Assembly: GCA_038230515.1 (NCBI GenBank) | Contig: JBBRND010000024.1 | Coordinates: forward strand, 845-64,844 | From: Bacteroidia bacterium | GTDB taxonomy: Bacteria; Bacteroidota; Bacteroidia; AKYH767-A; 2013-40CM-41-45 | Direction of reading: 5' to 3' | DNA length: 64,000 bases | In this document: piece by piece, positions 3,158-29,167 of the stretch | Layout: each line of letters opens with the position of its first letter | How positions within the stretch are numbered: the first letter of the stretch is position 1 | Program-made: the position numbers and the translations under genes | The notes under the pieces: generated by a model | What the model was told of the DNA's origin: nothing | What the model saw: the letters and a program-made list of their open reading frames with translations, nothing else | Database searches by the model: none

Positions 3158-3175
3158 ACGAAAAAAAGACGGGAG

Positions 3176-4690
3176 TTGCTTTTAATCGGCAACTTCCGTA
3201 TCTTTACATTTGTGAAAAATATTTTTCTTCTCGCTTTAACATTGCTAAACTGTGGTCTCAGTCAAGCGCAAAAGGAAGATTATGTGTGGCATGTTGGCTA
3301 TTCTTCCTTTATGGATTTTAATAGTGGAGCCGCAACAACTTTTTTTGCTAATGGTCCGATTGCACTGGATTATACAAATGCTAGTATTTGTGATAGTGCA
3401 GGCAACCTAATTATTTATACAAATGGTGTGACCCTTTGCAATAATGTAAATGATACATTATTAAACGGTACTAATCTTAATCCATGCTCATTTACTTCAA
3501 CGTGGGCGGGAGCAGGATTACCAATATCGCAAGCTGATATTATCATTCAGAGACCCGATCATCCTAACTATTATTATTTATTTCATGAAACATGCGATAA
3601 TCCTTTTGGTGGATATTTTATGACTAATGTTCTTTATTTAAGTGTGATTGATATGAGTTTAGATAGTGGGCGAGGCGGTGTAACTAATATAAAAAATTTT
3701 CACCTTTATCAAAATGATACATTGCATATAGGGAATCTATCAGCAGTAAAACATGCCAATGGCAGAGATTGGTGGCTACTAACAAAAAAACTCATTTCAC
3801 CAATTTTTTACAAATGGTTAATAATGCCAGACACGATTATAGGGCCTATTATTCAATCGAATCAAATAGGTTCAGCCTATAACCCAGGACCGGGTTTTGG
3901 TCAATCAGTATTTTCACCCCAAGGAGACAAGTACGGAGTAATTTATAATAATAAAAATTTCTACCTCTATGATTTTAATCGATGTACTGGTGAATTAAAT
4001 TATTTATTCCAGGAGTACTACAATGACAGCTCATTATTCGGTAGTGGCTGTGCCTTTTCTGCTTCAGGAAGATATTTGTATGTGAGTACTGAGAAATTGA
4101 TTTATCAATATGATATGAATGCTGGAAACATTCAGGCTTCGAAAGTTGTTGTTGCTGTTTATGATGGATTTATGTTACCGGTAGCTACTCATTTCAATCA
4201 AATGCGACTTGCGCCAGATGAAAAAATATATATTAGCACAGACAATGGTGTATATGTATTTCACGTAATTGAATATCCCGACTCAGCGGGCTTGGCATGT
4301 AATGTGATGCAGCATTCGTTTTATTTGCCCGGACCACCAAGCGCATCAGTTCCTAACATTCCTGATTATAAACTTGGACCATTAAATGATAGTGGATGCG
4401 ATACAATACTCAATATTTGGTATCTTGAAAAAAATAATTTTTCAATTCTGGCTTATCCGAACCCCTCAAAAGGTGACTTTACACTTAAATTCAATTGTGC
4501 CAATGAAACTCACTATTCATTATCTGTAAAGGATATTTTAGGTCGCTTGCTTGTAAATGTCAATGACAAAGCTATTAAAGGAATAAACATTAAGACTATG
4601 GATTTAACTTTGGCAGAGGGTATTTACTTCATAAATGTGAAATCATTCAATATGAATGAGACCATTCGGATCGCAGTCGAGAATCATTAA
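3176..4690 (+). CDS. T9SS C-terminal-domain secreted protein (function unknown)
   Basis: N-terminal hydrophobic signal-like segment ending in '...SQAQ'. C-terminal 'AYPNPSKGDFTLKF...GIYFINV' T9SS sorting domain. Confidence 0.65.
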   Translation: MLLIGNFRIFTFVKNIFLLALTLLNCGLSQAQKEDYVWHVGYSSFMDFNSGAATTFFANGPIALDYTNASICDSAGNLIIYTNGVTLCNNVNDTLLNGTNLNPCSFTSTWAGAGLPISQADIIIQRPDHPNYYYLFHETCDNPFGGYFMTNVLYLSVIDMSLDSGRGGVTNIKNFHLYQNDTLHIGNLSAVKHANGRDWWLLTKKLISPIFYKWLIMPDTIIGPIIQSNQIGSAYNPGPGFGQSVFSPQGDKYGVIYNNKNFYLYDFNRCTGELNYLFQEYYNDSSLFGSGCAFSASGRYLYVSTEKLIYQYDMNAGNIQASKVVVAVYDGFMLPVATHFNQMRLAPDEKIYISTDNGVYVFHVIEYPDSAGLACNVMQHSFYLPGPPSASVPNIPDYKLGPLNDSGCDTILNIWYLEKNNFSILAYPNPSKGDFTLKFNCANETHYSLSVKDILGRLLVNVNDKAIKGINIKTMDLTLAEGIYFINVKSFNMNETIRIAVENH

Positions 4691-7792: not shown

Positions 7793-8740
7793 CTATTTCA
7801 GAAAATGACTTGCAAGAATAGACCCCCAAATGTGCCATATTTCAGTAGTGTGAGCAACAGCGGTTAAAATTTCTTGGCAAGAATTCAATATTGTTTTAAT
7901 TACAGGTTTAGCAGCTCTTTGTTCCAGTGGTTTCATAGCTTCTTGACTAAGAAAATTTATGTGTTCTAAATATTCTTGTTGTTGCTCCTGACTTATTACA
8001 ACGGAATCTTTCACAGCCTCAGCTAATTTCTCAAATGCCTTCGCAATATCATTCAGGCCCTCATTGTTAAGCGTCGCATTATTCTTTATAATATTATCTT
8101 GAATATTTCTCATGCTGAAAACATTGCCGTGACCTTGAATTGAAATGTTGTAATTATTTGTCGTAATTGAGTGCCCGCTGTAAGAATAAGAATCCTCTTC
8201 AACATATTCTATTCCCACCGTGGTTATGGATCCCATTGCATCATCGTGTTTCCCCAAAAATTGCACCATGCCATCTCCTTCTAATTTTTTCCCTAAAGAA
8301 AACACTTCATCAAAGTTTACTTCAACTCCATTGTTTTGAAGAATCCAAGTCAGTGAATAATACTTTCCGTCATGCTTGAATTCGTAAAGACCTTTTAGAA
8401 TCAGGTCAAGTTTTTCGGATTGTTTCATAGCTCTATTTGAATTTCCATTTCGTTCTTTTTGTTGCCGATATTTGTGTAATCCAATCTCTGCCGCCTTCCA
8501 ACCCTCTTGCGTAAGTTTAACCCTATACTTCTCATCTCCCCACCACGCTACAAGACCTTCATCAATTAGGTTATCTCTCATTAAAGTGTAATCAAACCAT
8601 TCATATTTTTTTTCTTCTGTAAAAAAATATGATTGCTGGTCTGTGTTCAAAGTGCCTTTATGTTCTGATAGAAGCATCAAAAGCAACTCTGCCATTTCGG
8701 TTTCAACTTCATTCATCTTTTTCCCTTCAGCTAAGTTCAT
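7793..8740 (-). CDS. Hypothetical protein, last gene of the DUF2188/AbiGi-like operon (possible AbiGii-like partner)
   Basis: 315-aa ORF 26 nt downstream of the AbiGi-like gene on the same strand. No recognisable motif. Confidence 0.4.
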   Translation of the reverse strand: MNLAEGKKMNEVETEMAELLLMLLSEHKGTLNTDQQSYFFTEEKKYEWFDYTLMRDNLIDEGLVAWWGDEKYRVKLTQEGWKAAEIGLHKYRQQKERNGNSNRAMKQSEKLDLILKGLYEFKHDGKYYSLTWILQNNGVEVNFDEVFSLGKKLEGDGMVQFLGKHDDAMGSITTVGIEYVEEDSYSYSGHSITTNNYNISIQGHGNVFSMRNIQDNIIKNNATLNNEGLNDIAKAFEKLAEAVKDSVVISQEQQQEYLEHINFLSQEAMKPLEQRAAKPVIKTILNSCQEILTAVAHTTEIWHIWGSILASHFLK

Positions 8741-8766: not shown

Positions 8767-9510
8767 TTACATGTCATCTCTGATTTGTTCAACGCTAATC
8801 AGTTTTGACACCAACAATTTTACTTCCGGTTTCGTAAAATTCTTCTTAAGATTCCTTTCAATAAAATCTACGAACTCTGGTATTTCTTCTTCGTCTTTTA
8901 CGATTATGTATTTAATATCCTTTGCCTTGAAAATAAGCTTCTCATTTTTTTGCATCAAGCCATTTTGCTTTTTCAAAAATTCATCGGTTACTTGTTTTTC
9001 CAAATACACACGAAATTTCTTTGGCGAATAACGCCATTCCCTTTCATCATAAAATGGCTTGAACTCCATTTTCTTACTTCGCTTATTTTGTCCAAGTCCT
9101 TCATATGCTTTAATGTATTTGTAAAAATCAGGGATTTGTTTTTCTAATACTTCCTTTTCACTTGAAGTTGTCAATGTTCTAAGTTGCATCCTGATTTCAT
9201 GAATCAAAGTAGCTGACATTGCATCTTTGGGAACATAGATGATTGGACTTATTCCATTCTGAATACCCCACCCTTTTTTACTCAAGCCAATTCCATAATC
9301 TCCATAAAAATCAATATGAGGAATAATTTGAGAAAATATCAAATCACAGAAACAAACCATTGGAACATGAGCAGTAAAATTTTTGTTGTCAGGAATAACA
9401 TTCCCCAAATCTTCCAAACTGTAACTTGGATAGAAATAGTTTTTCAGAACCCCTTTCAGGTTTTCTTTCCTGTCTGTAAAATGAAAAAGAGTATTTGCGC
9501 TTACGTTCAT
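8767..9510 (-). CDS. AbiGi-like abortive-infection protein (putative)
   Basis: 247 aa. N-terminal 'SANTLFHFT' motif and a length near the ~248-aa lactococcal AbiGi. Call is from recollection of the PF10899 family. Confidence 0.45.
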   Translation of the reverse strand: MNVSANTLFHFTDRKENLKGVLKNYFYPSYSLEDLGNVIPDNKNFTAHVPMVCFCDLIFSQIIPHIDFYGDYGIGLSKKGWGIQNGISPIIYVPKDAMSATLIHEIRMQLRTLTTSSEKEVLEKQIPDFYKYIKAYEGLGQNKRSKKMEFKPFYDEREWRYSPKKFRVYLEKQVTDEFLKKQNGLMQKNEKLIFKAKDIKYIIVKDEEEIPEFVDFIERNLKKNFTKPEVKLLVSKLISVEQIRDDM

Positions 9511-9512: not shown

Positions 9513-10052
9513 TTAAAAATTCTTGAAATAATTTAACAGGTGAACGACAGCTTCCTTGTATATTTTTTTTGCCTGCGACAACTTTCTTGATTCAATAGCT
9601 TCACAGGCAAGATTTATTTTCCTAAAAATTTCTTGAAATAATTTTTCTTTTCGCTTATCAACTTTCAAAAGTTCAACCAAACGAGGAGCTTTTGAATAAT
9701 ATTCTTGAATGAGGATTTTATTTTGAGCTGATTCGGACAAATATCCATCTCTGAACTTTCTTAGTGTTTGCAATTGGTAGCAATCATCTTTCAGTCCGTA
9801 ATATTTCACGCACGCAGTAGTCAGAAAGCAATTGCCATCTGGTTCACCTTCTTCGGGATTCCATGTTCTCTGAATCTTTCCATCTTTCCCATGAACAGCA
9901 ACGGTTAAGTTTTGATTTATTGCAATTGTTCGTGCAGCTTTCAATGCTTCAGCTTTTGTATTCTTAACCGCTGATGCCTTTTCATGACCATCTTTTTTTA
10001 CAACCCAAACATTCCCGTCCGGGTAAACCCTTATTGTTCTATATGCCATCAA
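9513..10052 (-). CDS. DUF2188-domain protein with a Cys-containing C-terminal extension
   Basis: N-terminal 'YRTIRVYPDGNVWVVKKDGHEKASAVKNTKAEALKAARTIAINQNLTVAVHGKDGKIQ' matches the DUF2188 pattern. Its start lies 3 nt from the AbiGi-like stop, so the two are likely an operon. Confidence 0.55.
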   Translation of the reverse strand: MMAYRTIRVYPDGNVWVVKKDGHEKASAVKNTKAEALKAARTIAINQNLTVAVHGKDGKIQRTWNPEEGEPDGNCFLTTACVKYYGLKDDCYQLQTLRKFRDGYLSESAQNKILIQEYYSKAPRLVELLKVDKRKEKLFQEIFRKINLACEAIESRKLSQAKKIYKEAVVHLLNYFKNF

Positions 10053-10665: not shown

Positions 10666-11544
10666 ATGAATAAAATCATAAAAGAGTATTTAGAGTGGAA
10701 GGGGACTTACGCACCGAGAGCCAGTGTGAATTATAAAATTTGGCTTGACAGATTTGTAGAAGAGTGTGGTGAGAAACAACTTGACAGGTATGATGTATCT
10801 GACCTAGTAAAGTATCGCAATTGGGTGGAAGATCACTATAGTCCTTGCACAACTTCGCTGGCAATGGTTGTGATCAAAAATTTTCTTCAATTTTGTAAAA
10901 CACAAAATTACACCTGTCTCTCACCAACACTTGTCCGGCTGCCAAGAATAATTGCAAAATCTCATCGTGCTGTAACAGAGGACGAATTTCATAGAATCAT
11001 TTCTGTAATTCCTCAAAGTGAATTCATGTCGCTTCGAGATTTGCTCTTGATTCGCATGTTATGGGACACAGGAGTCCGTGTTTCGGAGCTTTGCGACCTA
11101 GATTTGTCTCAGATCAACGAAAATAAAAGATCAGCAGTTATTCAAACAAAAAAGACAGGAAAGAAACGAATTATTGTATGGTCTGAAGAGACACACAAAC
11201 TTCTTATGAAGTATGTACCAATGCGATTGGAGTTACACAAATTCAATCGTGCAAACGCACTCTTTATCGGATGGCGGAAGGGAAGGGGATGGAGTCTCCG
11301 GCTTACCACAAAAAGTGTACAAAGGACAATCAGATATTTTGTAGACCGAGCTGGCATCAAAGAAAAAATTACACCTCATAGTTTCAGGCATGGTTGGGCG
11401 CACAAGCGCAGAGATCAGAATGCTCCTCTTGCTTTTATTCAAAGGGGATTGGGTCACATAAATCCTATCTCAACTTTTGTCTACGAGCAATACAATGACT
11501 TGGAGTTTGAGAGAAATGCAAATACCTACTTAAAAGTAGCTTAA
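10666..11544 (+). CDS. Tyrosine site-specific recombinase (XerC/XerD-like small integrase)
   Basis: 292 aa. N-terminal SAM-like DNA-binding region. C-terminal catalytic motifs '...HSFRHGWAHKRRDQNAPLAFIQRGLGHINPISTFVYEQY' contain the R..H..R..Y residues. Confidence 0.8.
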   Translation: MNKIIKEYLEWKGTYAPRASVNYKIWLDRFVEECGEKQLDRYDVSDLVKYRNWVEDHYSPCTTSLAMVVIKNFLQFCKTQNYTCLSPTLVRLPRIIAKSHRAVTEDEFHRIISVIPQSEFMSLRDLLLIRMLWDTGVRVSELCDLDLSQINENKRSAVIQTKKTGKKRIIVWSEETHKLLMKYVPMRLELHKFNRANALFIGWRKGRGWSLRLTTKSVQRTIRYFVDRAGIKEKITPHSFRHGWAHKRRDQNAPLAFIQRGLGHINPISTFVYEQYNDLEFERNANTYLKVA

Positions 11545-11628
11545 TATTCCCAGCATATTCAATACTTTCGAACGGCATTTAAATAAAATGCCGTTTGCTT
11601 GTTTTTAATAACATAGGAACACTAGCCA

Positions 11629-14600
11629 TTATCGTGGTATTACTTTATACTTTGTGTCTCTTGTATCAAATGCTTCATAAGTTCCTTCCAAAATATCTAC
11701 CACTGTTTTATTGATAGTTGGATTTTCTAAGGCACCTGAATTGATTATTACTTTGTTCTTGTTGTGCTTCTCAATTTTAACATGAATGATTTGGTCTGCA
11801 TCACAAACAACGGCTAAGTTAGGGTTATGAGTCACAATAATGATTTGTCTTTTGTCCTTTGCTTTCTTGATAAACTGAGCAAGCAATTTGAAAACACTTT
11901 GGTTGTCCAAATTCTCTTCGGGTTGGTCAATCACTAGTGGAATATTGTTTTGGTCAAGTGCCAGATAAAAAATAAGAAGTAAAGCCCCTCGTTCTCCGGG
12001 GGACAATTCCGAAATATTTTTGTTGTTGAGTTTGAGTTTGTATGTCGGTTCTAAATATTCAAGCCCAAATAAAAAATCATAAAGTTCTTCCACTGAAAAA
12101 TCACTTTTCAACTGCTTTTCAATTTCTCTTTTTGGTCTGCCTAAACCTTCTCTCGTATCGTTTTTAAGATTATCAACTATGTCATCAAGCAAAGCAGTGA
12201 TTCCTTCTGCTGTTTTCCACTCATGCTGATTTAAAATTGAATTTAGTTTTTCTCTTCCCTCGGTAATTCCTATGAAACTGCCTTTTGCTCCTGCACTTAT
12301 TGGAGCAAAAAATCTATCTTCAAAAGCAGCCATTTTATTTTCAATGTCAAGTTTGATTTCATACTGTTCAAGAACTCCTCCGTAGCTTTCAATGAAGTCC
12401 GTTATCGGTTTGTAAAATGTTTTGTAAATATTCAGAATGTCATTTTTCTTTCCGAAAAGTTTTATCAGAATATCTTTTCTAAGAGTGGTTGCTTCTGAAA
12501 GGTCCGTCTTTAATTGTGTTTCAATGTATTTTAATTCTCCCTCGTAGTATTTCAAAGTTCCATATTGTTCTTCATCTCCTGTGATTGATTTTTCTATTGT
12601 TGTCCATTCAGCCAAATCATTTAAGTATTTCTGGAATTGCTTTGAAGGTTCATCTAATGTATTTTGAAGTATAGCTAACTGCTCTTTTAAAACCGATAAT
12701 TTTTTCGGCAAACTTTCTGTGTTGTTTAAATCTAAAAGTGTATTTATAGAAGTAAGTTCGCCTCTCAACTCTGTAATTTTTGAATTGATTTTATCACGGG
12801 TAATTTCAAACTTAATTACATCTTCAATATTTATTTCGTTTGCTGTTAGGGTTGGAGTAATTTCTCCTTTGATTTTTTGATACTGTGTTTCAAGTAAACT
12901 CAATGAACCTAAAATTTTTTCGAGCGAAGCGACAGAAACGTTAATCGCTTTCTGCTTGCCTGAACTTTCTGCAATTAATTTTTCTAAATCTGCCTGTTGT
13001 TTTCGTTTGGCTTCAATTTGAGCAGATACTTCTTTATTCTTCTCAACTATTTTAGGGTCACTTGGCGCTTCCTTTGCAGGAGTTTTGATTTGATTGTGTG
13101 CAAGCAAATCTTTTTTCTTCTGTTCCAAATTGCTTGCAAGTAGGTTCTTGTAAGAATCCGTATCTTTTTTTTCCAACTCAACAACTATTGCATTGGTCTG
13201 TTTTAAATCAAGCAATGTTTGGTCAATATCGTTCTGAATTGTATCTGTTCTGAACTTTGCTAACTCTTCTAAATTGTTCTTGCCAAATTTTTCTGCATCA
13301 GGAATGTGAGTGAAAATCACATTCCTTAATTCATCTTCAAAGTTCTCATGATTTTCATTGCACAATTTTTCAAGAAAACCTTGCGGAATGTATTTTACTT
13401 TTTCAATAGAAGTTGGATGAGGGTCGTTTGCTAAGTATTGTTCATCAGTTGTATTTGTTTCCCAAGTCAGATATGCATTGAAACTCTCTGCTCTGTTTGG
13501 TCTTGGTGCTCTGAATTTTGTTTTTCCCAGAAATGAAAAATCTCCACAATTTTGAGTGTTGCCAACTAAGCCAATGCAATCTGTCAATGCACTTTTTCCA
13601 TTTCCTTTGTTTCCGATTATTGCAACCAGTCCTGAATTGATTTCAACTTCTACATTTTCAAACCAAATTTCGTCAAGTCGTGAATCAGAAAGTTTTTGGA
13701 ACGAAAGTTTCTTGATGTATCGGTTGGGATTTTCATGCACTCGTTTTTTTAGTGGTGGCAAATCACCAACAAAAATTCTTGTGCTTTCATTTGCAACTTG
13801 TTTTAAGCCTTCAAAAGTTGTGTTTGCTTTTAGCCATGTAGAGCAATTACCAATTCTGTCTTTGTCTGCACTGTCAGAAAAATAATGTGCATCGCTGCAA
13901 TCAAGTAATTTATCATTTACATTTTGTTCGGTGAGTTTTTGTTTCTGCCTTTCATAACTGTCTGCACTTTCAAGTGCAGAGAAAACAAAATTTGCTTTGT
14001 TGATTACAGTTCGCTTTGTTCCTGGTGAACCGTCCCACCTCATTGTGTCCCACTCTGATTTTCCAACTGCTGTAAGAAACTTGTCCTTGAAAGTTGTTGC
14101 TTCTAGTTTTTGAAACAGAATTTCAAAATTGAAGGTTAAACTGTTGAAACCTGTTTTCAAATCTGAATCGCTGATTGACTTTGCAGATTTTTCTTTTACT
14201 TTTTTTCCAAGTTGAATAAGTGTGTCCGCTGTGACTATTTCATTAAAATCTTCTTCTGAACCATCAACATCAAACTTTAGTTTGTGTTGAACTGCATTCA
14301 AAAAATTTCTCTCAATTACATTTGCTGCAAGGGTGTCTGAAAAGATGATATGAAAATTTACTTTCTTCCAAGGGTCTTCTGAACCAAGTGAAGCAAATTT
14401 GTCAAGTCGTAATTCGATAACGGGAAGAATTAAATCAATGTTTTGCAATCTTCCTTTCAGTCTATACTCTAAAACTTTTCGATAGCCATCTAAAAATATA
14501 TAATCATTAATGCCAATCGCTTTAAATGTTGGCGGTAATTTTTCCAAATCAGTAATGAACTTTTCCCAAGCTGTTTCTGTGTCGCCACCATAACCTTGAA

Positions 14601-14676
14601 TAATCGAGCAAGGAGTATGAACATGCAAATCCCACTTACACCATTCTGACCCACGATGAAAATTTCTTTCGCTCAT
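11629..14676 (-). CDS. PHP-domain phosphoesterase fused to an SMC/ABC-type ATPase (Ppl-like single-gene defence candidate)
   Basis: N-terminal 'WDLHVHTPCS' and a later 'DCSDAHYF' His cluster, both PHP hallmarks. Walker A 'GNKGNGKS'. Long coiled-coil middle. ABC signature 'LSPGERGALL', Walker B 'LVIDQPEENLD' and His-switch 'VTHNP' at the C-terminus. Confidence 0.75.
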   Translation of the reverse strand: MSERNFHRGSEWCKWDLHVHTPCSIIQGYGGDTETAWEKFITDLEKLPPTFKAIGINDYIFLDGYRKVLEYRLKGRLQNIDLILPVIELRLDKFASLGSEDPWKKVNFHIIFSDTLAANVIERNFLNAVQHKLKFDVDGSEEDFNEIVTADTLIQLGKKVKEKSAKSISDSDLKTGFNSLTFNFEILFQKLEATTFKDKFLTAVGKSEWDTMRWDGSPGTKRTVINKANFVFSALESADSYERQKQKLTEQNVNDKLLDCSDAHYFSDSADKDRIGNCSTWLKANTTFEGLKQVANESTRIFVGDLPPLKKRVHENPNRYIKKLSFQKLSDSRLDEIWFENVEVEINSGLVAIIGNKGNGKSALTDCIGLVGNTQNCGDFSFLGKTKFRAPRPNRAESFNAYLTWETNTTDEQYLANDPHPTSIEKVKYIPQGFLEKLCNENHENFEDELRNVIFTHIPDAEKFGKNNLEELAKFRTDTIQNDIDQTLLDLKQTNAIVVELEKKDTDSYKNLLASNLEQKKKDLLAHNQIKTPAKEAPSDPKIVEKNKEVSAQIEAKRKQQADLEKLIAESSGKQKAINVSVASLEKILGSLSLLETQYQKIKGEITPTLTANEINIEDVIKFEITRDKINSKITELRGELTSINTLLDLNNTESLPKKLSVLKEQLAILQNTLDEPSKQFQKYLNDLAEWTTIEKSITGDEEQYGTLKYYEGELKYIETQLKTDLSEATTLRKDILIKLFGKKNDILNIYKTFYKPITDFIESYGGVLEQYEIKLDIENKMAAFEDRFFAPISAGAKGSFIGITEGREKLNSILNQHEWKTAEGITALLDDIVDNLKNDTREGLGRPKREIEKQLKSDFSVEELYDFLFGLEYLEPTYKLKLNNKNISELSPGERGALLLIFYLALDQNNIPLVIDQPEENLDNQSVFKLLAQFIKKAKDKRQIIIVTHNPNLAVVCDADQIIHVKIEKHNKNKVIINSGALENPTINKTVVDILEGTYEAFDTRDTKYKVIPR

Positions 14677-14769
14677 TTTGTACTGGTTTAAAATTAATTT
14701 CTTAAATTATTATTCGCACAATTTACACAAACTTAGATTTTAAAAATATATTTAGACTTTTATTTTAGC

Positions 14770-15114
14770 TTATAAAAGCTGAGAAATCTCTAGTCCATAT
14801 TTTCTGATCTCCGACATGAGAGGGGATTCAAGTTCAGCATATTCTGAAAGGGAAGCAGGGAAGGGCTCAATACGGGTATCAACTTTTCTTCGCTGCTTGA
14901 AAAGGTATTGCATTTCGTCAACGTTGTCGCTCCCGAACTTTGGTGAAACCACGCACACATCAATATCACTGGTTCCTGTTGCTTTATTTTTTGCATGAGA
15001 ACCAAAGACCACAAGCTTGCTGATAGGGATACCGCTGCGCTGTAAAAGCCTCCCGAATTGGAGAACCTTTTCCTGTACACCTTTATTCAATATGAACTCT
15101 GTTTTTTTATCCAT
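14770..15114 (-). CDS. Nucleotidyltransferase (MNT / MntA-like, Pol-beta superfamily)
   Basis: Motif 'VVFGSHAKNKATGTSDIDVCVV' (GS...D.D). Overlaps the HEPN gene by 28 nt. Confidence 0.75.
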   Translation of the reverse strand: MDKKTEFILNKGVQEKVLQFGRLLQRSGIPISKLVVFGSHAKNKATGTSDIDVCVVSPKFGSDNVDEMQYLFKQRRKVDTRIEPFPASLSEYAELESPLMSEIRKYGLEISQLL

Positions 15115-15479
15115 AAATATAAATTTGTTGTTTCACTGAAATATTTTTCAGTATAGGCCTCGGTTGCTTTCTTAAAAAACTTGAATTTGTAATCGTCATA
15201 CCGCGCTTTGATATTAAATGTATTGATCTCATCCATTAAATCAAGTTGCTCTTTTGAAAATGGAATTCCCGTCAACCCACTAAGCACAGATAAATTATGT
15301 TCATAGGGCGCCTGCTCTCCGGTTTTTTGCACTACTGCCGCTTTGAGAATTTTCTCAATCATCAGGTGGCAAAAGAAAAGAGAGTGTGAGAATCGTTTTG
15401 AAGAGAAAAGGGATTGAGCGGTTTTATAATCTTCTTCGGCACTTACGAGCCAATATTCAATTACATGACTTGCTTTCAC
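15087..15479 (-). CDS. HEPN-domain protein (HepT-like toxin partner of the MNT)
   Basis: 130-aa alpha-helical ORF with the 'AEEDYKTAQSL...HLMIEKILKAA' HEPN pattern, immediately upstream of and overlapping the nucleotidyltransferase gene. Confidence 0.65.
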   Translation of the reverse strand: MKASHVIEYWLVSAEEDYKTAQSLFSSKRFSHSLFFCHLMIEKILKAAVVQKTGEQAPYEHNLSVLSGLTGIPFSKEQLDLMDEINTFNIKARYDDYKFKFFKKATEAYTEKYFSETTNLYLWIKKQSSY

Positions 15480-17889: not shown

Positions 17890-17981
17890 TAGTCGCAATC
17901 AAACGTTGATTTTTTTTACTGCAATTTTTTTCCGAAAAGATTTTTCATAACAGTTCTTTAAACAATTAAATCAAACTAAAT

Positions 17982-18881
17982 ATGGAAAATGCAAATCAAA
18001 CCGTTCAAACGCGTGATGTCTACGACATGGTCACTGAGCGCGTAATCACTCTTCTTGAAAAAGGAGTCGTGCCGTGGAAACAAACCTGGACTGAATCCGG
18101 TCTTCCGCAAAACCTCATTACCGGAAAGCCATACCGGGGAATCAATGTCTGGCTGCTCCTATCACTTGACTATCCGAAAAACTTCTTCCTCACATTTGCA
18201 CAAGCGAAAGAGTTAGGAGGGAATGTCAAGAAAAATGAGAAGGGACACCTGATTGTTTTCTGGAAGTGGATCGAGAAGGAAAACAAAGTCAGTCATGGGA
18301 TGGAGAAGATTCCTTTGCTGCGTTACTACAAAGTGTTTAACGTTGCGCAGTGTGAGGGTCTTCCTGAAAAAAAGATTCCCGAGACAACAAAACCCAATGA
18401 TCCGATTGGTGAATGTGAAAAGATCGTTGAACTCATGCCGAAGTGTCCTGAGATCAAGTTTACAGGCAGTCAGCCCTATTACAATCCAGTGCTTGACTTC
18501 ATCAACATGCCTAAGATAAAAGATTTCCAGAGTAGCGAAACCTACTACGAAACTCTTTTTCATGAGTTGGTACACAGTACCGGACATCAGAGCAGGTTGA
18601 ACCGAAAGGAGGTGACAGATTCCCGCTTTGGTAGCGCTCTGTATTCCATAGAGGAATTGACGGCTGAACTCGGTTGCTGCTACCTGAAGTCCTGTGCCGG
18701 TTTGAAAGAAGTTGTGCGGGATAACAACGTGGCATATTTGCAAGGGTGGCTGAAGAGACTACGTAGTGACAAGAAGTTCATTGTGTATGCAAGCGCACAG
18801 GCGCAACGTGCTGTTGATTTTATTCTGAATGTCATTCCTCGCAGCACTGATGAACCAATGGTAGAGGAGGTGTTATCATGA
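17982..18881 (+). CDS. ardC: ArdC-like antirestriction protein (ArdC-N ssDNA-binding domain + HExxH zincin domain)
   Basis: N-terminal 'VVPWKQTW...GKPYRGINVWLL' ArdC-N pattern. 'FHELVHSTGH' metallopeptidase motif. Confidence 0.75.
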   Translation: MENANQTVQTRDVYDMVTERVITLLEKGVVPWKQTWTESGLPQNLITGKPYRGINVWLLLSLDYPKNFFLTFAQAKELGGNVKKNEKGHLIVFWKWIEKENKVSHGMEKIPLLRYYKVFNVAQCEGLPEKKIPETTKPNDPIGECEKIVELMPKCPEIKFTGSQPYYNPVLDFINMPKIKDFQSSETYYETLFHELVHSTGHQSRLNRKEVTDSRFGSALYSIEELTAELGCCYLKSCAGLKEVVRDNNVAYLQGWLKRLRSDKKFIVYASAQAQRAVDFILNVIPRSTDEPMVEEVLS

Positions 18882-19099
18882 ATAATACATCAAGGAGTTC
18901 AACCGTATCAAAACGACTTTTGAAAGTGTATCGCGGACATTTCTGTTTGCGATTCGGTCACGTGTACAAATCGCATCCTGTAATTCGTCTCGGAGGAATT
19001 TATCTTTCCGCGCTTGATTTTCAGATTGGAGATGAGATTGAAGTTTATGCAGAGCGTGGCATGATTTTAATTACGAAGGTGGGTTCAGAAAGTGTTTGA
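18878..19099 (+). CDS. SymE-like (AbrB/SpoVT-fold) toxin family small protein
   Basis: 73 aa. 'PVIRLGGIYLSALDFQIGDEIEVYAERGMILITKV' matches the SymE/swapped-hairpin pattern. Overlaps the ardC stop (ATGA). Confidence 0.5.
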   Translation: MNNTSRSSTVSKRLLKVYRGHFCLRFGHVYKSHPVIRLGGIYLSALDFQIGDEIEVYAERGMILITKVGSESV

Positions 19100-20455: not shown

Positions 20456-20773
20456 TTACTTAGATTTCGATATTAAATATTTAGCCCTGACCAGAACCCA
20501 ATGATTCTGCCCAAATTTTTCTTTGATGTGCGACAATAATTTCTTTTGCAAAGTAAAGGCCAAGACCGGAGCCCCGGTATTAACTTTTCTTCCAGATCCC
20601 CGAGAAAATTTTTCGAATAGTTTAGGAATGTTCTCCTTGGAAATACCAATTCCGCTGTCGGAGATCGCGACCCAAATCTTCCCATTATTATAATGAGAAA
20701 GTTCAACTTTAATAAATCCTCTTTCTATGTACTTTATTGAATTGTCAATGAAGTTCAATAGGACCTGCCTCAT
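20456..20773 (-). pseudogene. Histidine-kinase HATPase_c fragment (gene remnant)
   Basis: 'ISDSGIGISKENIPKLFEKFSRG' G1/G2-box-like motifs with no upstream HisKA/sensor region. Only 105 aa. Confidence 0.45.
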
Positions 20774-21489: not shown

Positions 21490-21687
21490 ATGATAAGCAA
21501 GCACGCTCTTGAAATGAAAAATGGCATGAAATATATCCTGCATTACTACGATACAAAAGGATACAAGAAAAAATATCTGGTCGGATTGTACACGCCGCTT
21601 CGTGATTTTTATAAGACTGACATTCTATTTCTCTTCTGGGATGAAATGCTGAGTGTCCTCGAAAAGATGGAAGCAGAACAAGTATGA
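21490..21687 (+). pseudogene. Fragment paralogous to the C-terminal half of the 16763..17107 ORF
   Basis: 'NLMISKHALEMKNGMKYILHYYDTKGYKKKYL...' aligns with 'NLMIQKKALSKKMGMKYISLYYNAEKYKQKFL...'. Confidence 0.4.
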
Positions 21688-22488
21688 AGCCACCCCTCAC
21701 GTACTACGGGGGAAAGCAAAAGCTAGCTAAATATATTTTACCACTCATATCTAAGCATAAGCTTTACTGCGAGCCGTTCTTTGGAGGAGGTGTTATCTTC
21801 TTCGCAAAGGAGCCATATGAAATTGAAGTTATCAATGACACCAATGGCGACCTGATCAATTTTTACAGTGTAGTCAAGAATCGTTTTAATGCCCTCAAGA
21901 AAGAAGTTAGGGTGACACTTCCGAGCAGAGAGCACCATCACACGGCAAAGCTTGTTATAGGTTATCCTACGCTCTTTAATGATGTGAAGCGCGCGTGGGG
22001 CAATCTGGACACTAGCGAATCAGAGCTATGCGTCTCGACTTGCTAACTCATCGGGCTTTGACCGGAAAAGAAATACTTCTGCAAAACGCCACTACCATAA
22101 GCATAAGAACTTCATTCGTGACTACTAAAAAAGGCTTGAACAGACCGAAATAGAAAACAGTGATGCAATACATGTCATCACCTCACGCGACAGCAAGAAC
22201 AGTTTTGTCTATTGTGATCCTCCCTACATCAATACGGACATGGGACATTATAAAAAGTATTCGAAACAGGATTTCGAAATCCTGCTACACACCTTGTCTT
22301 CAATCAAAGGAAAATTTTTGTTGAGTTCGTTTCATTCTCCATTACTCGCACGATTCACACAAAAAAATAAATGGAACACAAAGAAAATTGATATGCCTCT
22401 TAACGTGACAGCCAAATACAAAAGGCATAGCCGCAAGCAGGAAGTCATCACAACAAATTACCGACAGCCGGCTCGTTTGCAAAATTAA
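21684..22488 (+). pseudogene. Dam-like adenine methyltransferase pseudogene (frameshift near 22030 and TCA>TAA nonsense at 22127-22129)
   Basis: The first 120 aa are ~80% identical to the 17104 Dam. The reading frame is then lost. The downstream frame still encodes 'VYCDPPYINTDMGHYKK...', interrupted by 'DY*KRLE'. Confidence 0.7.
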
Positions 22489-23393: not shown

Positions 23394-23478
23394 TTCATAA
23401 ATTTAAAAATTGCTCCAATGTAAGTCATTACTTTCTATTTCCATACTCAGTTCTTCAAACAATTAAATCAAACTCATT

Positions 23479-23694
23479 ATGGAAAATTCAAAACAGACTG
23501 CATCTCGCAGGCAGATGAAAGTGTATCGAGGACATTTCGTTTTAAAATACGGACGCGTATTCAAAGCGCATCCTGTCATTCGTTTGGGAGGCATCTATTT
23601 GTCTGCACTGGATTTTCAAATCTGAGATGAAATTGAAGTGAGTACATTGAGAGGAATAATTCTCATCACGAAAGTTCAGAGAAATTATGTCTGA
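23479..23694 (+). pseudogene. SymE-like gene remnant fused to the first codons of ardC (MENxxQT...) with an in-frame TGA at 23623-23625
   Basis: 'MENSKQTASRRQMKVYRGHFVLKYGRVFKAHPVIRLGGIYLSALDFQI*DEIEV' compared with the copy-1 'MENANQTVQ...' (ArdC start) and 'KVYRGHFCLRFGHVYKSHPVIRLGGIYLSALDFQIGDEIEV' (SymE). Confidence 0.5.
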
Positions 23695-23895: not shown

Positions 23896-24966
23896 ATGAG
23901 CAGTTTATTTTATAAAAAATTATCTACAGCAAGAAAGATGTCAGGACTTTCTCTGCAAGAATTAGCTGATAGAACTGGAGTATCAAAAAGCGCAATTTTC
24001 AAATATGAAAATAATGAAATGATGCCCGACAGCGCGTCCTTGATCCGGCTTTCTGAGATACTGGATGTAAACATGGGATATTTTTTTAACGATGAATTAT
24101 CTGGCAATATAGAATTAATCGATATTGAATACAGAGAAGAATTCAAGTTGGGTGATACCGAAATTGATACCATAAAAAAAAATGTGGAAAATTACCTTGA
24201 GCGTCTTTTCGAGTTAGAGAAAGTTGCGGATGTTGCTCCTGAAAGATTTAAAAATCCAGTCGAGGGAATACGAATAAAATCTGTGAGTGATGTGACAAAA
24301 GCAGTGAAGGTACTGAGAAGAAAATGGCAGATAGCAACCACAGCTATTTCTAATGTAATTGGTTTGATTGAAAGTAAAGGTATAAAAGTTTATCAAATTC
24401 TTCAGTCGGAAAAATTCGAAGGATTTTCTGCCTGGGCGGGTGAAGTGCCGGTAATTGTTGTCAATGGAAATATCCAAGAAGTAACTCGAGTGCGCTTCAC
24501 AGCACTTCATGAACTTGGGCATATTGTATTGTGCGTTGAAGATGATTTATCAGATGAGAAGATTGAAAGGATCTGTGATGCTTTTGCTGGTGCGATGTTA
24601 TTTCCAGATGACTTGGTTGTTGCTGAACTCGGGAGTAATAGAAAAAAAATTTCACTCGAAGAATTAAAGTTAGTAAAGGAGAAATACGGAATATCCATTC
24701 AGGCAATTATGGTAAGGGCAGCAAATGTTTCAATAATAAGCTGGGATACATACAATAAATGGAAACAATATTATTTATCGCTGACAGGAACTAATCAAGA
24801 TTTTGGAAAATTTAGTTCTGATGAATCCCCAAAAAGATTTAGTCAAATGTTGTTTAATTGTATTGCGGAGGAAAAAATTTCAATTGCCCGTGCTGCAGTG
24901 CTATCGGATAAAAAAATTAGCACTCTTAAAAAAGAAAAAATAATACATGAATGCTTCTACAATTAG
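23896..24966 (+). CDS. XRE-family HTH fused to an ImmA/IrrE-type zinc metallopeptidase (COG2856-like)
   Basis: N-terminal 'LSLQELADRTGVSKSAIFKYENNEMMP' HTH. 'ALHELGHIVL' HExxH motif in the C-terminal domain. Confidence 0.7.
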   Translation: MSSLFYKKLSTARKMSGLSLQELADRTGVSKSAIFKYENNEMMPDSASLIRLSEILDVNMGYFFNDELSGNIELIDIEYREEFKLGDTEIDTIKKNVENYLERLFELEKVADVAPERFKNPVEGIRIKSVSDVTKAVKVLRRKWQIATTAISNVIGLIESKGIKVYQILQSEKFEGFSAWAGEVPVIVVNGNIQEVTRVRFTALHELGHIVLCVEDDLSDEKIERICDAFAGAMLFPDDLVVAELGSNRKKISLEELKLVKEKYGISIQAIMVRAANVSIISWDTYNKWKQYYLSLTGTNQDFGKFSSDESPKRFSQMLFNCIAEEKISIARAAVLSDKKISTLKKEKIIHECFYN

Positions 24967-24972
24967 AAATAT

Positions 24973-25359
24973 ATGATTGCTATCTTTAATGACCCCGATG
25001 ACATAAGCCTTTTCCGCGCTTCCATCAGAAAAAATGATGGGAGTGAACTTGATTTTTTTGTTTCGGATTTGACACTACATGAACATGGGAAATCCTTTTT
25101 TCTCAACCTAAAAATTGAGTTCGTTAAGGAGGTTTCATTTAACGGAGGTGAGATGAAGAGCATCGTAAATTTGTACCATGAGAACAACAAAAATTATTCA
25201 ATCGGTAATTGCTCGAATTTATTTTTTGCCCAGCAACATCATGCCCTTATAATAACAAACGATGCGATAATTGTGGCTATTGCAAGAAAGTATCGTTTAG
25301 AAGCCATCTCCACAAAGTATCTCAAAAAAACTCTCAGATTAATTTCAATAAAACAATAA
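24973..25359 (+). CDS. Hypothetical protein downstream of ImmA/IrrE (possible PIN-like/DUF4411-type partner)
   Basis: 128 aa with 'HALIITNDAIIVAIARKYRLEAIS' near the C-terminus. Only weak resemblance to PIN-like folds. Confidence 0.3.
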   Translation: MIAIFNDPDDISLFRASIRKNDGSELDFFVSDLTLHEHGKSFFLNLKIEFVKEVSFNGGEMKSIVNLYHENNKNYSIGNCSNLFFAQQHHALIITNDAIIVAIARKYRLEAISTKYLKKTLRLISIKQ

Positions 25360-25663
25360 AAATAAAAAATATGAAATAAAAAACCGGCCCGAAGACCGGC
25401 TGTAATTTTGATCGTAAGTCTGAATTCAGAACTTTAGGAAGGTCACTGAATTCTGATGCAAAGAAAAGTATTCTTTCTTTACCAAACAAATCTTTTCAGC
25501 TTCATCGCCCGGGAAATCTCCCAAACCTGAATTCACCATTTGGCGTGAGCCAAATCTGTGGCTATAATTCATGTGCCCAAAATTATTTCTGTGAAAAGTT
25601 TCTGACGCTTGTAGCCTGCATTGAAATATTTCACTTTGTTTCAAATCAAAATTATTATTAAAA

Positions 25664-26107
25664 ATGAAAAATAATACAATTAAATTTATAATTAACGACA
25701 AGCATTTTGAATCCGATGAACAGTACATTCTAGGTGCTAAAGTTCGGGCAATAGGAAACATATCGAAGGATGATGAAATCTTCCTTGCTATCAAACGCCC
25801 GTGGGAAGACGAGTCAATTGCTGATGATACGAAAGTTGATTTAGCGCGTCCCGGTATTGAACATTTCTTCTCCAAAAAACATGGCGAAGAGAAGTTGGTT
25901 TCAATTTATGTTGACAACATCGAAAAGAAAATCTCACGTGGTAAACACTCCGTTGCTGAGATAAAAAAAATCGGTGGTGTTCCTGCTTCATATGAATTGG
26001 AAGAGGTAATTGATGGAAAGCTCACACCGCTTGATGACAACGCAGTAGTGCTAATTAAAGGGGGTGAAAAGTTTTTCGGTCATGTTCGCGATGGTTCCTC
26101 ATCTTAA
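25664..26107 (+). CDS. Multiubiquitin-domain protein (ubiquitin-like modifier of a Bil-like / 6E-type conjugation system)
   Basis: 147 aa, predicted beta-grasp-rich, ends in '...KGGEKFFGHVRDGSSS'. Directly followed by E2-like and JAB-E1 genes. Confidence 0.5.
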   Translation: MKNNTIKFIINDKHFESDEQYILGAKVRAIGNISKDDEIFLAIKRPWEDESIADDTKVDLARPGIEHFFSKKHGEEKLVSIYVDNIEKKISRGKHSVAEIKKIGGVPASYELEEVIDGKLTPLDDNAVVLIKGGEKFFGHVRDGSSS

Positions 26108-26115
26108 TTTCAGCT

Positions 26116-26451: not shown

Positions 26452-27783
26452 ATGAGAAATAAATACAAAGTATGGTTCAAAATACCAAAGCAAATTCATT
26501 TGAAGATGCTTGGTGATTTAAGAAGATCTCATTCGTTCGCTTACGAAAGAGTGGGTTTTTTATTTACGACTTCGAAGTTACTTTCAGATAACACCATTCT
26601 TGTTTTGGCAAAAGATTATTCTCCAGTCGATGATAAAAATTACATTGATGACAATAAAGTTGGTGCAAAAATAAACTCAACTGCTATTCGGAACGCAATG
26701 CAAAGAGTCATGGAAAATAACGAGGGGTGTTTTCATGTTCATTTGCACAATCATACAGGTGCTACCTATCCAAGCCGCACTGACGAAGTAGGATTACCAC
26801 CAGTAGCAAAAAGTTTCGCTAACGTTTCTCCGAATCAGGCGAGCGGAATTTTAATATTAAGCGAAGATTCTTTTTACGCATCAGTAATTTGTCCAAACGA
26901 AAAAAAATTTATTACTCCTGAATTGATTTCAGTTGTCGGTTATCCTCTTAATCTATGTTTCCCGGGAGCAAAAATGAATGCAAGAAGAAAATCACTCGAC
27001 AGGCAATCATTCCTCGGAGTAAAGTCTCAGCATGTTTTTGAAAACATAAAAGTTGGAATTATTGGATATGGAGGAGGGGGTTCTCACATTGGTCAGCAAC
27101 TCGCACATCTGGGGGTAAAGAACATTTTAATTTTTGATGACGACAAAGTTGAAGAAACTAATCTTAACCGTTTAATAGGTGCATGGTTTAGTGATGTAAA
27201 AAAAGCTGTCTTAAAAATAAATGTAGCCAAGCGAATTATTAAAAAAATTCTTCCTTCAGTTCAGATAGTTTGTATAAATAAAAGATGGCAGGAAAAAGCT
27301 GAACTTTTACAACTCTGCGATGTAGTTTTCGGAAGTGCTGATACTTATGCAGAACGTCAGCAATTAGAAGCTGAGTGTAGACGCTATCTGATACCTTTAA
27401 TTGATATCGGAATGGATGTGCATATATTGGATAATGCGTATGAAATGTCTGGACAAATAATTCTCTCAATGCCGGGTTCACCGTGCATGAAATGTTTTGG
27501 TTTTCTAACCGACAAAAAGCTGGCGTTAGAAGCAGCAAAGTACGGAGATGTCGGGGGAAGACCACAAGTTGTCTGGGCAAACGGTGTGTTAGCGTCTACG
27601 GCTGTCGGAGCATTTGTGGATTTAGCCACTGGCTGGACAAAGACAGAGGACAAACTTATTTATCTGTCATATGGTGGAAATAAAGGAACACTGGGTAACC
27701 ACATTCGATTGGAATATGCTGAAAAAATTTGTACTCACTATACATTTGATCAGTTAGGGGTACCTGTTTTTAAAAAATTCTAA
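26452..27783 (+). CDS. JAB/MPN deubiquitinase-like domain fused to an E1-like (ThiF/MoeB) adenylyltransferase
   Basis: JAMM motif 'HVHLHNHTGATYPSRTDE' in the N-terminal half. Rossmann 'VGIIGYGGGGSHIGQQLAHLGVKNILIFDDDKVEETNLNRL' E1 motif in the C-terminal half. Confidence 0.75.
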   Translation: MRNKYKVWFKIPKQIHLKMLGDLRRSHSFAYERVGFLFTTSKLLSDNTILVLAKDYSPVDDKNYIDDNKVGAKINSTAIRNAMQRVMENNEGCFHVHLHNHTGATYPSRTDEVGLPPVAKSFANVSPNQASGILILSEDSFYASVICPNEKKFITPELISVVGYPLNLCFPGAKMNARRKSLDRQSFLGVKSQHVFENIKVGIIGYGGGGSHIGQQLAHLGVKNILIFDDDKVEETNLNRLIGAWFSDVKKAVLKINVAKRIIKKILPSVQIVCINKRWQEKAELLQLCDVVFGSADTYAERQQLEAECRRYLIPLIDIGMDVHILDNAYEMSGQIILSMPGSPCMKCFGFLTDKKLALEAAKYGDVGGRPQVVWANGVLASTAVGAFVDLATGWTKTEDKLIYLSYGGNKGTLGNHIRLEYAEKICTHYTFDQLGVPVFKKF

Positions 27784-27825
27784 AATTTATTATTATTATT
27801 ATTATTCCATCTTATACAATAAAAA

Positions 27826-27852
27826 AAGCCACCCTGTTACGGATGGCTCTCT
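27826..27852 (-). terminator. Hairpin + A/T tract terminator remnant at the 3' end of the truncated paralog
   Basis: 'aaaaaaagccaccctgttacggatggctc' is an imperfect version of the perfect hairpin at 31646-31676. Confidence 0.4.
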
Positions 27853-27862
27853 GTAGCATGAC

Positions 27863-28216: not shown

Positions 28217-29167
28217 ATGAAAAAAATCATTTTTATCAGCTATTCGACATTGGATAATGACAAGGTGGAGATATTAATATCTGAATTAAGCGCAACTGAA
28301 AATTTAACTCCTCTAGTGATCGCAGCAAATCGAGAAGCATTGAAGCCCCTGGCAAATAAAGTTGCTGAAGGAATTAATGGCTCTTGGGTCATCGTTCCTG
28401 TAATTACAAAAAAATCAATGTCAACTCAATGGCTCAATCAGGAAATTGGGTATGCTCAAGCGCGCGGAGTAAAAATTATGCCTATTGTTGAGAAGGGAGT
28501 GATCAACGACTTAAAAGGATTTATACATAAACAAATTGATCTCCCTTACACCTTCCTTTTATCTGATTCCGATCATAATAATGACAACTTTCGGGCTGCG
28601 ATAAAAACATTGATTAATGATCTGGAAAAACATTTGCCTATAGTACCTAAAGTTGAACCTGTCAAAACTCCATTTGAAAAAAGTCTTGACTTGGCGGACA
28701 TCGTAGAAAAGGAACAGAGTTATAAAAAGGAGAAAGAAAAATTTCTTGGTTCTCACACCGCATTTGAAATGGCCCAGCAGGAGGTTCTCACAAATATGTT
28801 CAAAGAAATAAGAGAAAAGATCAACGCGCTTCATACTAGGAAAATGTTTTGCGGTACCGAGGAAGATAATCTGCAGTTTTTGTTTATGGTCAACTGTGAG
28901 GGCTTCAACTTGGTTATTCAATTCTATTTACCTTATTTTAATTCCCTCCAGGAGTCCATACTTTACGTAAAATACATGAGTTCTTACGCTCAACCAAAAG
29001 AGGTTAAAAACATGCAATTCATTTTCGATAAAAACGAAGCGGGGCAAATAGGCTGGTTAAATCTAAAGCAGCGCAAACTTTATCTCTCGCAGCAAATCGT
29101 TGATGATGGCTTCGCCTGGATAGTCGAACAAGTCTCATTGAAAAGAAAGGGAATAACGGAACTTTAA
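28217..29167 (+). CDS. TIR-domain protein (N-terminal TIR/TIR-like ~140 aa + C-terminal domain of unknown function)
   Basis: 'KIIFISYSTLDNDKVEILISEL' first strand and 'VIVPVITKKSMSTQWLNQEIGYAQ' (S..W...E, putative catalytic Glu) match TIR/DUF1863 patterns. Confidence 0.6.
   Translation: MKKIIFISYSTLDNDKVEILISELSATENLTPLVIAANREALKPLANKVAEGINGSWVIVPVITKKSMSTQWLNQEIGYAQARGVKIMPIVEKGVINDLKGFIHKQIDLPYTFLLSDSDHNNDNFRAAIKTLINDLEKHLPIVPKVEPVKTPFEKSLDLADIVEKEQSYKKEKEKFLGSHTAFEMAQQEVLTNMFKEIREKINALHTRKMFCGTEEDNLQFLFMVNCEGFNLVIQFYLPYFNSLQESILYVKYMSSYAQPKEVKNMQFIFDKNEAGQIGWLNLKQRKLYLSQQIVDDGFAWIVEQVSLKRKGITEL

Follow-up and report, generated by a model that had tools for sequence, protein, structure and literature searches.

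Ppl was reportedly described by Gao et al. in 2020 as a single-gene anti-phage system. The Ppl of E. coli is a 3'-5' exonuclease of single-stranded DNA. Nucleoside triphosphates (NTPs) that bind to the PHP domain and to the NTPase domain inhibit the enzyme, whereas the depletion of nucleotides caused by phage, along with the 3'-OH ends left by phage homing endonucleases, activates it (review PMC12904381; for the mechanism the primary reference is the paper of Xu et al., Mol Cell 2026, which PMC13434339 cites). Before that, Ppl had been presented as uncharacterised in a study that identified a phage gene countering this defence (PMC11482910). Payne et al. grouped Ppl with the OLD/Gabija/PARIS/Wadjet/Lamassu-type systems. 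The TrlF family takes its name from trlR-trlF-trlG, the "temperature restriction locus" (TRL) of Photorhabdus laumondii (PMC7554251), which was the sole paper found by literature searches for TrlF, Spaf_1101 and TRL. The present work concerns a gene coding for a 1015-residue protein (11629..14676, minus strand, from the list of open reading frames, ORFs) in contig JBBRND010000024.1 of a Bacteroidia bacterium; the window, i.e., the whole stretch of 64,000 nt that was analysed, is the reference for all coordinates. The conclusions are that: (i) this gene adds a stand-alone member to the TrlF family, which was catalogued before; (ii) TrlF and Ppl are sister families in a single-chain "PHP nuclease + Rad50/SMC-like ABC ATPase" superfamily; (iii) the window TrlF is, with a probability that we put at about 0.6, a Ppl-like nucleotide-gated nuclease that would defend against phage or other invading DNA.

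An earlier note, made from the letters of the sequence, had pointed out several ORFs and a series of peptide motifs. The ORFs are where it had placed them, and all the motifs were found in the translation: WDLHVHT (residues 15-21), DCSDAHY (259-265), GNKGNGKS (355-362), LSPGERG (891-897), LVIDQPEENLD (914-924) and THNP (949-952). These motif residues are unvarying across an alignment of 24 sequences and at least 2478 homologues of the protein exist at E≤1e-10; the features are far beyond chance. The NCBIfam profile NF045780, "TrlF family AAA-like ATPase", matches the protein with 637.6 bits for a cutoff of 350, residues 8-1011 being aligned with profile positions 1-944 of 944.

The Ppl used for comparison was the RefSeq-annotated WP_000233113 (891 aa, from an E. 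coli IncF plasmid). By BLASTP the window protein matches it in three collinear segments: (i) the N-terminal HxH region; (ii) residues 223-371, which include SDAH and the Walker A (24% identity over 152 residues, E 5e-8); (iii) residues 886-1006 (31% over 122, E 4e-14). The alignment of the family against the same Ppl with hhalign gives a probability of 97% over 625 columns. Since the BLASTP segments are collinear and the hhalign probability is that high, TrlF and Ppl are homologous along their length. The order of the parts is the same in both proteins: an N-terminus of PHP type (HxH...DxH), a Walker A some 290-360 residues from the start, a long insert made of helices and, after it, the signature, a Walker B with DQPE, the H-loop and a C-terminal EGxxxAFxxRxxxY motif. 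Both are also encoded by single genes on mobile DNA and have no obligatory partner gene.

The ATPase part was delimited with an AlphaFold2 (AF2) model of the 1015-residue protein, built from the 24-sequence alignment (mean pLDDT 80.8). The N-terminal lobe of the ABC head (residues ~321-440; 13357..13716, on the minus strand as are all the parts of the gene) is recognised by its unvarying motifs, by phmmer and by Foldseek. It contains the Walker A GNKGNGKS (13591-13614), which phmmer matches with the Walker A regions of SMC and LolD, and the glutamine of the Q-loop, Q432. The lobe is followed by a coiled-coil insert of about 330 residues (~441-770; 12367..13356), seen in the AF2 model as long helices (469-504, 507-529, 541-612, 628-648 and 656-754) that fold back on themselves, with an apex at a short break around residues 613-627. 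Residues 441-770 hold no cysteine, thus the coiled coil has no zinc hook (CxxC); nor does a hinge domain stand at the apex. The C-terminal lobe (residues ~771-997; 11686..12366) is matched by phmmer with the heads of SMC/Rad50 (E 5.5e-9 to 1e-4). It contains the signature LSPGERG (11986-12006), the Walker B/D-loop LVIDQPEENLD (11905-11937), where Q918 occupies the position of the catalytic Glu, and the H-loop THNP (H950; 11821-11832). The Walker A, the Gln of the Q-loop, the signature, the Asp of the Walker B, the D-loop and the His of the H-loop are all unvarying among the homologues.

The matches found by phmmer are SMC heads, Rad50 heads and also AriA, and the best PDB matches of the AF2 model with Foldseek are the heads of Rad50, MukB, JetC, SMC, RecN and RecF. 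The full-length profile of the family, searched against the PDB sequences, found ABC heads only and no Ppl chain. A Rad50/SMC-like ATPase split by a long coiled coil, as the earlier note had read it, is thus confirmed by motifs, phmmer and Foldseek, and its motifs are of the ABC type. As in Mre11-Rad50/SbcCD, an antiparallel coiled coil interrupts the ABC head, which goes together with a (here predicted) metal-dependent phosphoesterase nuclease. On the contrary, the PHP-like domain of the window protein is fused, instead of being separate as is the calcineurin-like Mre11, the arms are shorter and have no zinc hook, and a Gln replaces the catalytic Glu.

In the Rad50/SMC class a Glu comes right after the Asp of the Walker B. 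In the window protein this position is Q918, and E920 and E921 follow it. DQPE is found in: (i) all of the 120 homologues retrieved with a word index; (ii) the three homologues found independently by tblastn, on a Vibrio plasmid, a Staphylococcus plasmid and in a Yersinia phage (L086:1757-4372); (iii) 75 of the 75 genome homologues, a count that is biased because this set was retrieved partly through the DQPE motif itself. The Walker B of the true Ppl WP_000233113 (L090:1697-4369) reads LLLDQPEDDLD, so that DQPE is also present there. Changing Glu to Gln at the catalytic position is the engineered change that traps SMC heads with ATP bound. Among the SMC entries matched by phmmer, 5xg3 reads VLDQVE, which we take to be such an engineered substitution, whereas 3zgx, an otherwise matching SMC head, reads VLDEVE. 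At the level of sequence, the DQPE of TrlF/Ppl corresponds in nature to the E-to-Q "ATP-trap" mutation that is engineered in SMC/Rad50 heads.

The N-terminal part (residues ~9-300; 13777..14652) is a divergent PHP-like phosphoesterase domain, as judged from the AF2/Foldseek fold and from hhalign to the family. PHP motif I WDLHVHT (D16, H18 and H20; 14614..14634) and the last PHP motif DCSDAHY (D262-x-H264; 13882..13902) are both unvarying in the 24 sequences. In the genome homologues D16 is kept in 74 of 75, H18 in 66, H20 in 72, D262 in all 75 and H264 in 72. DCSDAHY aligns with the SDAH of the members with a canonical PHP and with the GSDAHH of Ppl. The AF2 model of residues 1-325 (pLDDT 82, pTM 0.86) has as Foldseek matches in the PDB the RNase AM 9etk (E 1.1e-4), the PHP of Taq Pol III alpha 2hpi (7.5e-4) and the PHP domain of RNase AM 7ug9 (1.5e-3). 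The best matches of the domain in a viral library are the Pol III alpha subunits of phages. RNase AM (YciV) and the PHP domains of PolX/Pol III alpha are metal-dependent exonucleases; RNase AM and Pol III alpha are the best structural matches of the window N-terminus, although they have no detectable sequence similarity to it.

Two types of N-terminus exist in the family. The type of the window, designated "NDY/GKSEW", is found in 112 of 120 homologues, and seven of the 120 have a shorter canonical PHP (TDHH, GIEFR, VHAGS, SDAH) with precomputed PF02811 matches; the TrlF of a Yersinia phage passes Pfam PHP with 33.4 bits. Aligned with hhalign, the N-termini of the window type and those of the canonical type match over the whole domain with a probability of 99.8%. 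It must be noticed that P0080, P0085, P0090, P0093, P0095, P0103 and P0112 are ~59% identical to the window protein over the C-terminal 75% and have the canonical, shorter PHP instead of the divergent domain. N-terminal modules are swapped in this way inside the TrlF family.

The genomic context was studied across the family. A scan with one genome per species matched at least 588 loci, of which 80 were fetched. The comparison bears on 77 loci; having been retrieved through peptide patterns, they do not sample the family at random. The fetched homologues belong to Bacteroidota, Pseudomonadota, Acidobacteriota, Bacillota, Actinomycetota, Planctomycetota and Cyanobacteria, and one comes from a metagenome-assembled genome labelled Acidilobaceae, i.e., archaeal by name. 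No cluster of neighbours was present in more than 10 of the 77 loci (ORF calling and BLAST-level clustering), and 23 of the 77 have no close partner on the same strand. From 54 loci, 110 putative operon partners were scanned with Pfam and PADLOC. The commonest ones are subunits of type I restriction-modification (R-M) systems, with 9 Methylase_S, 8 ResIII, 7 N6_Mtase and 5 HSDR_N by Pfam, and 9 MTase_I and 9 Specificity_I by PADLOC. The relatives closest to the window protein differ in their neighbours: ArdC, a DNA methylase and a type IV secretion system coupling protein for P0002 (80% identity), an MmeI-type R-M gene for P0007 (67%) and an IS110 transposase for P0012 (64%).

By tblastn, TrlF or Ppl relatives are found on 1148 plasmid records, of which 825 are conjugative; in 207 of the records the match extends over 80% or more of the query; among the plasmid matches listed, most are labelled TrlF family by RefSeq and some Ppl. 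Many of the carriers are plasmids of Klebsiella and E. coli. In plasmids of Klebsiella and Yersinia it is a lone gene, surrounded by CcdAB, GNAT/DUF1778, an S-4TM effector, an abortive infection (Abi) protein and a PLD protein. The P2-like Yersinia phage vB_YenM_42.18 has, between gpA and gpQ, a TrlF-family gene of 872 codons (L086:1757-4375; 464.8 bits). The gpA-gpQ region is said, after the work of Rousset et al. in 2022, to be a defence hotspot of P2-like phages. This phage gene is annotated "chromosome partition protein Smc". The TrlF gene is a stand-alone gene, without conserved partner, whose locations are mobile elements and neighbourhoods of defence genes.

A Ppl-like gated nuclease is the most likely function of the window TrlF because of the collinear homology with Ppl, the DQPE head that both share and the stand-alone context on mobile DNA. 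From this anatomy and this homology, nuclease activity, NTP sensing, recognition of DNA ends and defence are predicted. In such a mechanism the ABC heads of two TrlF chains would come together with bound NTP between them. Hydrolysis would be slow, owing to the Gln at the position of the catalytic Glu, so that the head would be a sensor of the NTP level and not a motor. The coiled-coil arms and the head would engage DNA ends or other DNA structures. A drop of NTP during infection, combined with a suitable DNA end, would then lead the PHP-like domain to degrade DNA. An ABC ATPase as sensor and a nuclease as effector would be common to this protein and to OLD, Gabija GajA, PARIS AriA/AriB, Wadjet JetC/JetD and Lamassu LmuB/LmuA, and weak profile and fold matches of the window protein with AriA, GajA, JetC and LmuB were found. 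It differs from these systems by an effector that is a PHP, not a Toprim or another one, and that is fused in cis, with no partner.

Several points weigh against this gated nuclease. The literature searched contains no phage-defence test of any TrlF-family protein, and in the Photorhabdus TRL operon no phenotype attributable to trlF was found (PMC7554251). The mechanism of Ppl may not transfer, since the identity is low, i.e., 31% in the best ~120 residues, and the 77 loci are a selected sample as said above. Other points concern the N-terminal domain. Pfam PHP gives no match at E≤10, whether the search is made with the entire sequence or with residues 1-325, and a profile of the divergent N-termini finds no match among the PDB sequences. 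The TM-scores of the fold matches are modest (0.34-0.50). In comparison with the canonical-PHP members of the family the window domain has ~30 extra residues and has lost two canonical His ligands: the DH of motif II is DY, and the "VHAGS" His is gone in AVGKSEW. Nuclease activity is thus a prediction, given these lost ligands, the missing Pfam match and the modest TM-scores. As Pfam PHP does not match the N-terminus, the label "PHP" rests on fold and family evidence. The N-terminal PHP domain of the earlier note holds as to its fold and its alignment with canonical-PHP members, and not as to the Pfam sequence profile; strictly read, at the level of sequence profiles there is no PHP-family hit.

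More tentatively, the "NDY/GKSEW" TrlF proteins might be a defence family distinct from Ppl, with a PHP metal site remodelled by the loss of two His ligands and the gain of an unvarying Glu, hence another chemistry or substrate, and a DQ head working as a sensor of the NTP level; conjugative elements, plasmids of clinical enterobacteria and P2-like phages might then share an immune gene of major importance that has gone unrecognised. We regard this as possible, but as less likely than not.

The Ppl-like nuclease would have consequences for annotation. TrlF genes are very widespread, in view of the species genomes, of the plasmid records of TrlF/Ppl and of the P2-like phage mentioned above, and the sole relevant model of PADLOC v2, that of Ppl, matches TrlF just partially. 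Should TrlF act as Ppl does, a common single-gene nuclease system is being missed when defence genes are annotated, and the Gln found family-wide would represent a natural ABC head used as a nucleotide sensor and not as a motor.

It could be argued that the protein rather serves the mobile element or DNA repair, by an SbcCD/Rad50-like processing of ends for conjugation, maintenance or competition between plasmids. This would agree with the high share of conjugative plasmids among the carriers, with ArdC, a conjugation-associated anti-restriction factor, near trlF in the window as well as in P0002, its closest relative, with the Rad50-like fold and with the annotation of some relatives as "DNA repair protein" or "Smc". 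However, the position on the elements varies and the neighbours are Abi, toxin-antitoxin (TA), R-M and effector genes, not transfer genes. Moreover, Ppl, its homologue, has been validated as an anti-phage gene, and a P2-like phage carries a TrlF-family gene in its variable gpA-gpQ region. A role of this kind is therefore considered as unlikely.

Another question is whether the N-terminal domain is a dead PHP relic (cf. E. coli Pol III alpha), in which case the protein would be a sensing scaffold or would sequester its target. The two lost His ligands and the absence of a Pfam PHP match at E≤10 are what such a relic would show. Nevertheless, HxH, E, H and DxH are kept in the window domain, AVGKSEW holds a new conserved Glu (E208), and D16, H18, H20, D58, E88, H109, E208, D262 and H264 are 88-100% conserved across phyla. 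Since the remaining ligand positions and E208 are so conserved, the metal site is probably remodelled and still catalytic. In addition, no conserved partner effector exists that could supply a killing activity. A dead domain thus appears quite improbable.

Upstream of trlF and on the same strand lie two overlapping genes that the earlier note had presented as a pair, a "type VII TA-like" or abortive infection module. The first codes for a HEPN protein of 130 residues with a GTG start (15087..15479, minus strand; Pfam PF05168, 8.1e-18, 65.1 bits for a cutoff of 22). The second codes for a minimal nucleotidyltransferase (MNT) of 114 residues (14770..15114, minus strand; Pfam NTP_transf_2, PF01909, 1.6e-11, 44.9 bits for a cutoff of 21), and both overlap by 28 nt. 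The MNT contains the expected GSx10DxD motif (G38-S39-x10-D50-x-D52); it reaches 30.8 with the NCBIfam MntA profile (NF047752), under the cutoff of 60, and matches PADLOC PDC-S09 at 6.8e-11. The Rx4-6H motif looked for in the HEPN is missing: R93 is followed by Y-D-D-Y-K, with no His at +4 to +6. In an alignment of the window sequence and 65 relatives, drawn from 1903 matches, Rx4-6H is found at the aligned Arg in just 2 of the 66 sequences, and the unvarying residues of the subfamily are E42, K46, H61, R93 and Y94. The HEPN family profile matches the structural-genomics HEPNs TT1696, 1wol and TM0613. This HEPN is thus a classical PF05168 member and not a HepT/DUF86 toxin, because E...K...H...RY is kept, Rx4-6H is missing and the profile matches are of this type. 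A call of a 91-aa HEPN gene in Logan was dropped, residues 8-39 being covered by Pfam and conserved in the family.

With type VII HepT/MntA the pair shares an overlapping HEPN and MNT and the GSx10DxD motif. The differences are a HEPN that is TT1696/TM0613-like and without Rx4-6H(xY), an MNT under the MntA cutoff and an order of genes with HEPN first. The pair itself is therefore real and the comparison with type VII is an analogy, since the HEPN motif is missing and the MNT is under the cutoff. In L089 a HEPN of 57% identity is followed by an overlapping MNT of the same kind, the pair being alone there; HEPN-MNT is thus a conserved unit of its own.

These data bear on the idea that HEPN, MNT and ATPase form one three-gene system, in which the pair would be a sensor, a regulator or a second effector. 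The three genes are on the same strand, and the terminator scan found no terminator-like hairpin in the gap of 93 nt between MNT and trlF. But no homologue of the window HEPN/MNT was found in the 77 other TrlF loci (blastp and phmmer, E≤1), and the pair is also missing from the loci of P0002, P0007 and P0012 (80%, 67% and 64% identity). Neither HEPN nor NTP_transf_2 is among the families seen in at least two of the 110 partners. The occurrence of HEPN-MNT by itself elsewhere and a possible promoter motif in the gap also count against the idea. As HEPN/MNT do not co-occur with TrlF, a three-gene system is largely refuted and very improbable. The HEPN-MNT pair is an independent two-gene PF05168/PF01909 module, separate from the TrlF system.

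That the window protein is a bona fide Ppl, of the same family and mechanism as that of E. coli, has little left for it. The earlier note had matched it to the single-gene Ppl system on its architecture. The domain order is indeed the same and the proteins are homologous, the single-gene context, DQPE and the C-terminal motif are shared, and the best-scoring PADLOC model is Ppl (PDLC02208, 70.5 bits). But the best stretch of this match covers profile positions 772-888, i.e., just 117 of 894. The NCBIfam Ppl profile (NF042955) gives 83 bits for a cutoff of 1000, in two matched stretches of which the best is C-terminal (residues 878-1006), against 637.6 for TrlF; Spaf_1101, another NCBIfam profile, gives 131 bits, also under its cutoff (475). 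The window protein is moreover 124 residues longer than Ppl, its identity in the alignable segments is ~24-31%, and the PHP site is not the same: DY instead of DH and AVGKSEW instead of LAHID, the SDH and LAH ligands being kept in Ppl. Since the Ppl scores are under cutoff and the matches partial, the protein is not a Ppl by membership, and the Ppl-like architecture of the earlier note stands without its family assignment. For the window this is mainly a relabelling, TrlF instead of Ppl, with HEPN/MNT as a bystander.

Finally, a part in a TRL-type TrlR-TrlF-TrlG operon that restricts growth under stress has next to no chance: the family is named after the Photorhabdus operon and Photorhabdus TrlF belongs to the same NF045780, but this type locus is trlR-trlF-trlG whereas the window and most sampled members are without TrlG and TrlR, neither an AlbA_2/HATPase_c_4 (TrlG-like) gene nor a small TrlR-like regulator flanks the window trlF, AlbA_2 is not among the families recurring in at least 2 of the 110 partners, and the Photorhabdus suppressor mutations were in trlG (AlbA_2 + HATPase_c_4), none being in trlF itself (PMC7554251).

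On the other side of trlF, a tyrosine recombinase of 292 residues is encoded convergently (10666..11544, plus strand; Pfam Phage_integrase, 8.1e-27). The scan for terminator-like sites gave a hairpin with a stem of 12 bp in the intergenic region (11569..11597), 32 nt past the stop codon of trlF and 25 nt past that of the recombinase, which is likely a bidirectional terminator. The consensus TAnnTTTG is the -7 promoter element of Bacteroides promoters. A motif scan found a match to this Bacteroidota consensus, TAAGTTTG, 52 nt upstream of the ATG of trlF (14728..14735, minus strand). It gives a weak hint of a promoter belonging to trlF, and is a hint because TAnnTTTG is not enriched across the window (60 matches for 76.6 expected). 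Co-transcription of trlF with the HEPN/MNT pair may occur, but is not needed. A sigma-70 scan carries no information here: it gave fewer sites than shuffled sequences, and the host is a Bacteroidota. Inverted repeats around trlF, as would belong to an invertible promoter controlled by the recombinase, and direct repeats at the ends of an element were looked for, and just short repeats at chance level were seen. Rfam has no match between 9 and 17 kb.

The surroundings of trlF comprise AbiGi, a DUF2188/PDC-S16 protein, the recombinase, a phage-O-like replication protein, Dam and ArdC. A setting in a defence island, as the earlier note supposed, or in a mobile element is borne out by AbiGi, DUF2188/PDC-S16, Dam, ArdC and the recombinase close by. 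These surroundings fit an integrative or conjugative element, whose accessory region this would be, in a Bacteroidota bearing a type IX secretion system (T9SS). The AbiGi homologue (8767..9510, minus strand) reaches 161.7 bits with PADLOC. Downstream of it, its partner of 315 residues (7793..8740, minus strand) is not recognisable as AbiGii; it has a weak PDC-M14B match (27 bits) and no NCBIfam match. The protein of 179 residues encoded at 9513-10052 (minus strand) combines DUF2188 (PADLOC PDC-S16, 58 bits) and CFI-box-CTERM (NCBIfam, 48.1 bits for a cutoff of 40).

A partial duplication was observed near ardC. The start of ardC (17951-18001) is repeated at 23448-23498 with 88% identity, and 18921-19080, in the region of a SymE/AbrB-like ORF (18878..19099), is repeated at 23516-23675 with 75%; the copies are thus 4.6-5.5 kb downstream and without the body of ardC. 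Close to this duplication are fragments of Dam (120 aa, 21684..22046) and of HATPase_c (105 aa, 20456..20773), which suggest gene decay.

Further downstream, the genes of 23896-31618 (plus strand) may be a second conflict system. They start with an RmrA-like regulator made of a helix-turn-helix and a Peptidase_M78 domain (23896..24966; PADLOC RmrA, 153 bits, also capP/capH-like). It is followed by a protein with a Multiubiquitin domain (25664..26107; PF14452), an ORF of 111 codons, a ThiF/E1-like protein (26452..27783), a TIR_2 protein (28217..29167) and two proteins (466 and 320 aa) without recognised family. At the beginning of the window (95-4690, plus strand), its place in a Bacteroidota genome is indicated by two large proteins with Por_Secre_tail domains, i.e., the C-terminal sorting domain of the T9SS, one of them with PKD-like repeats.

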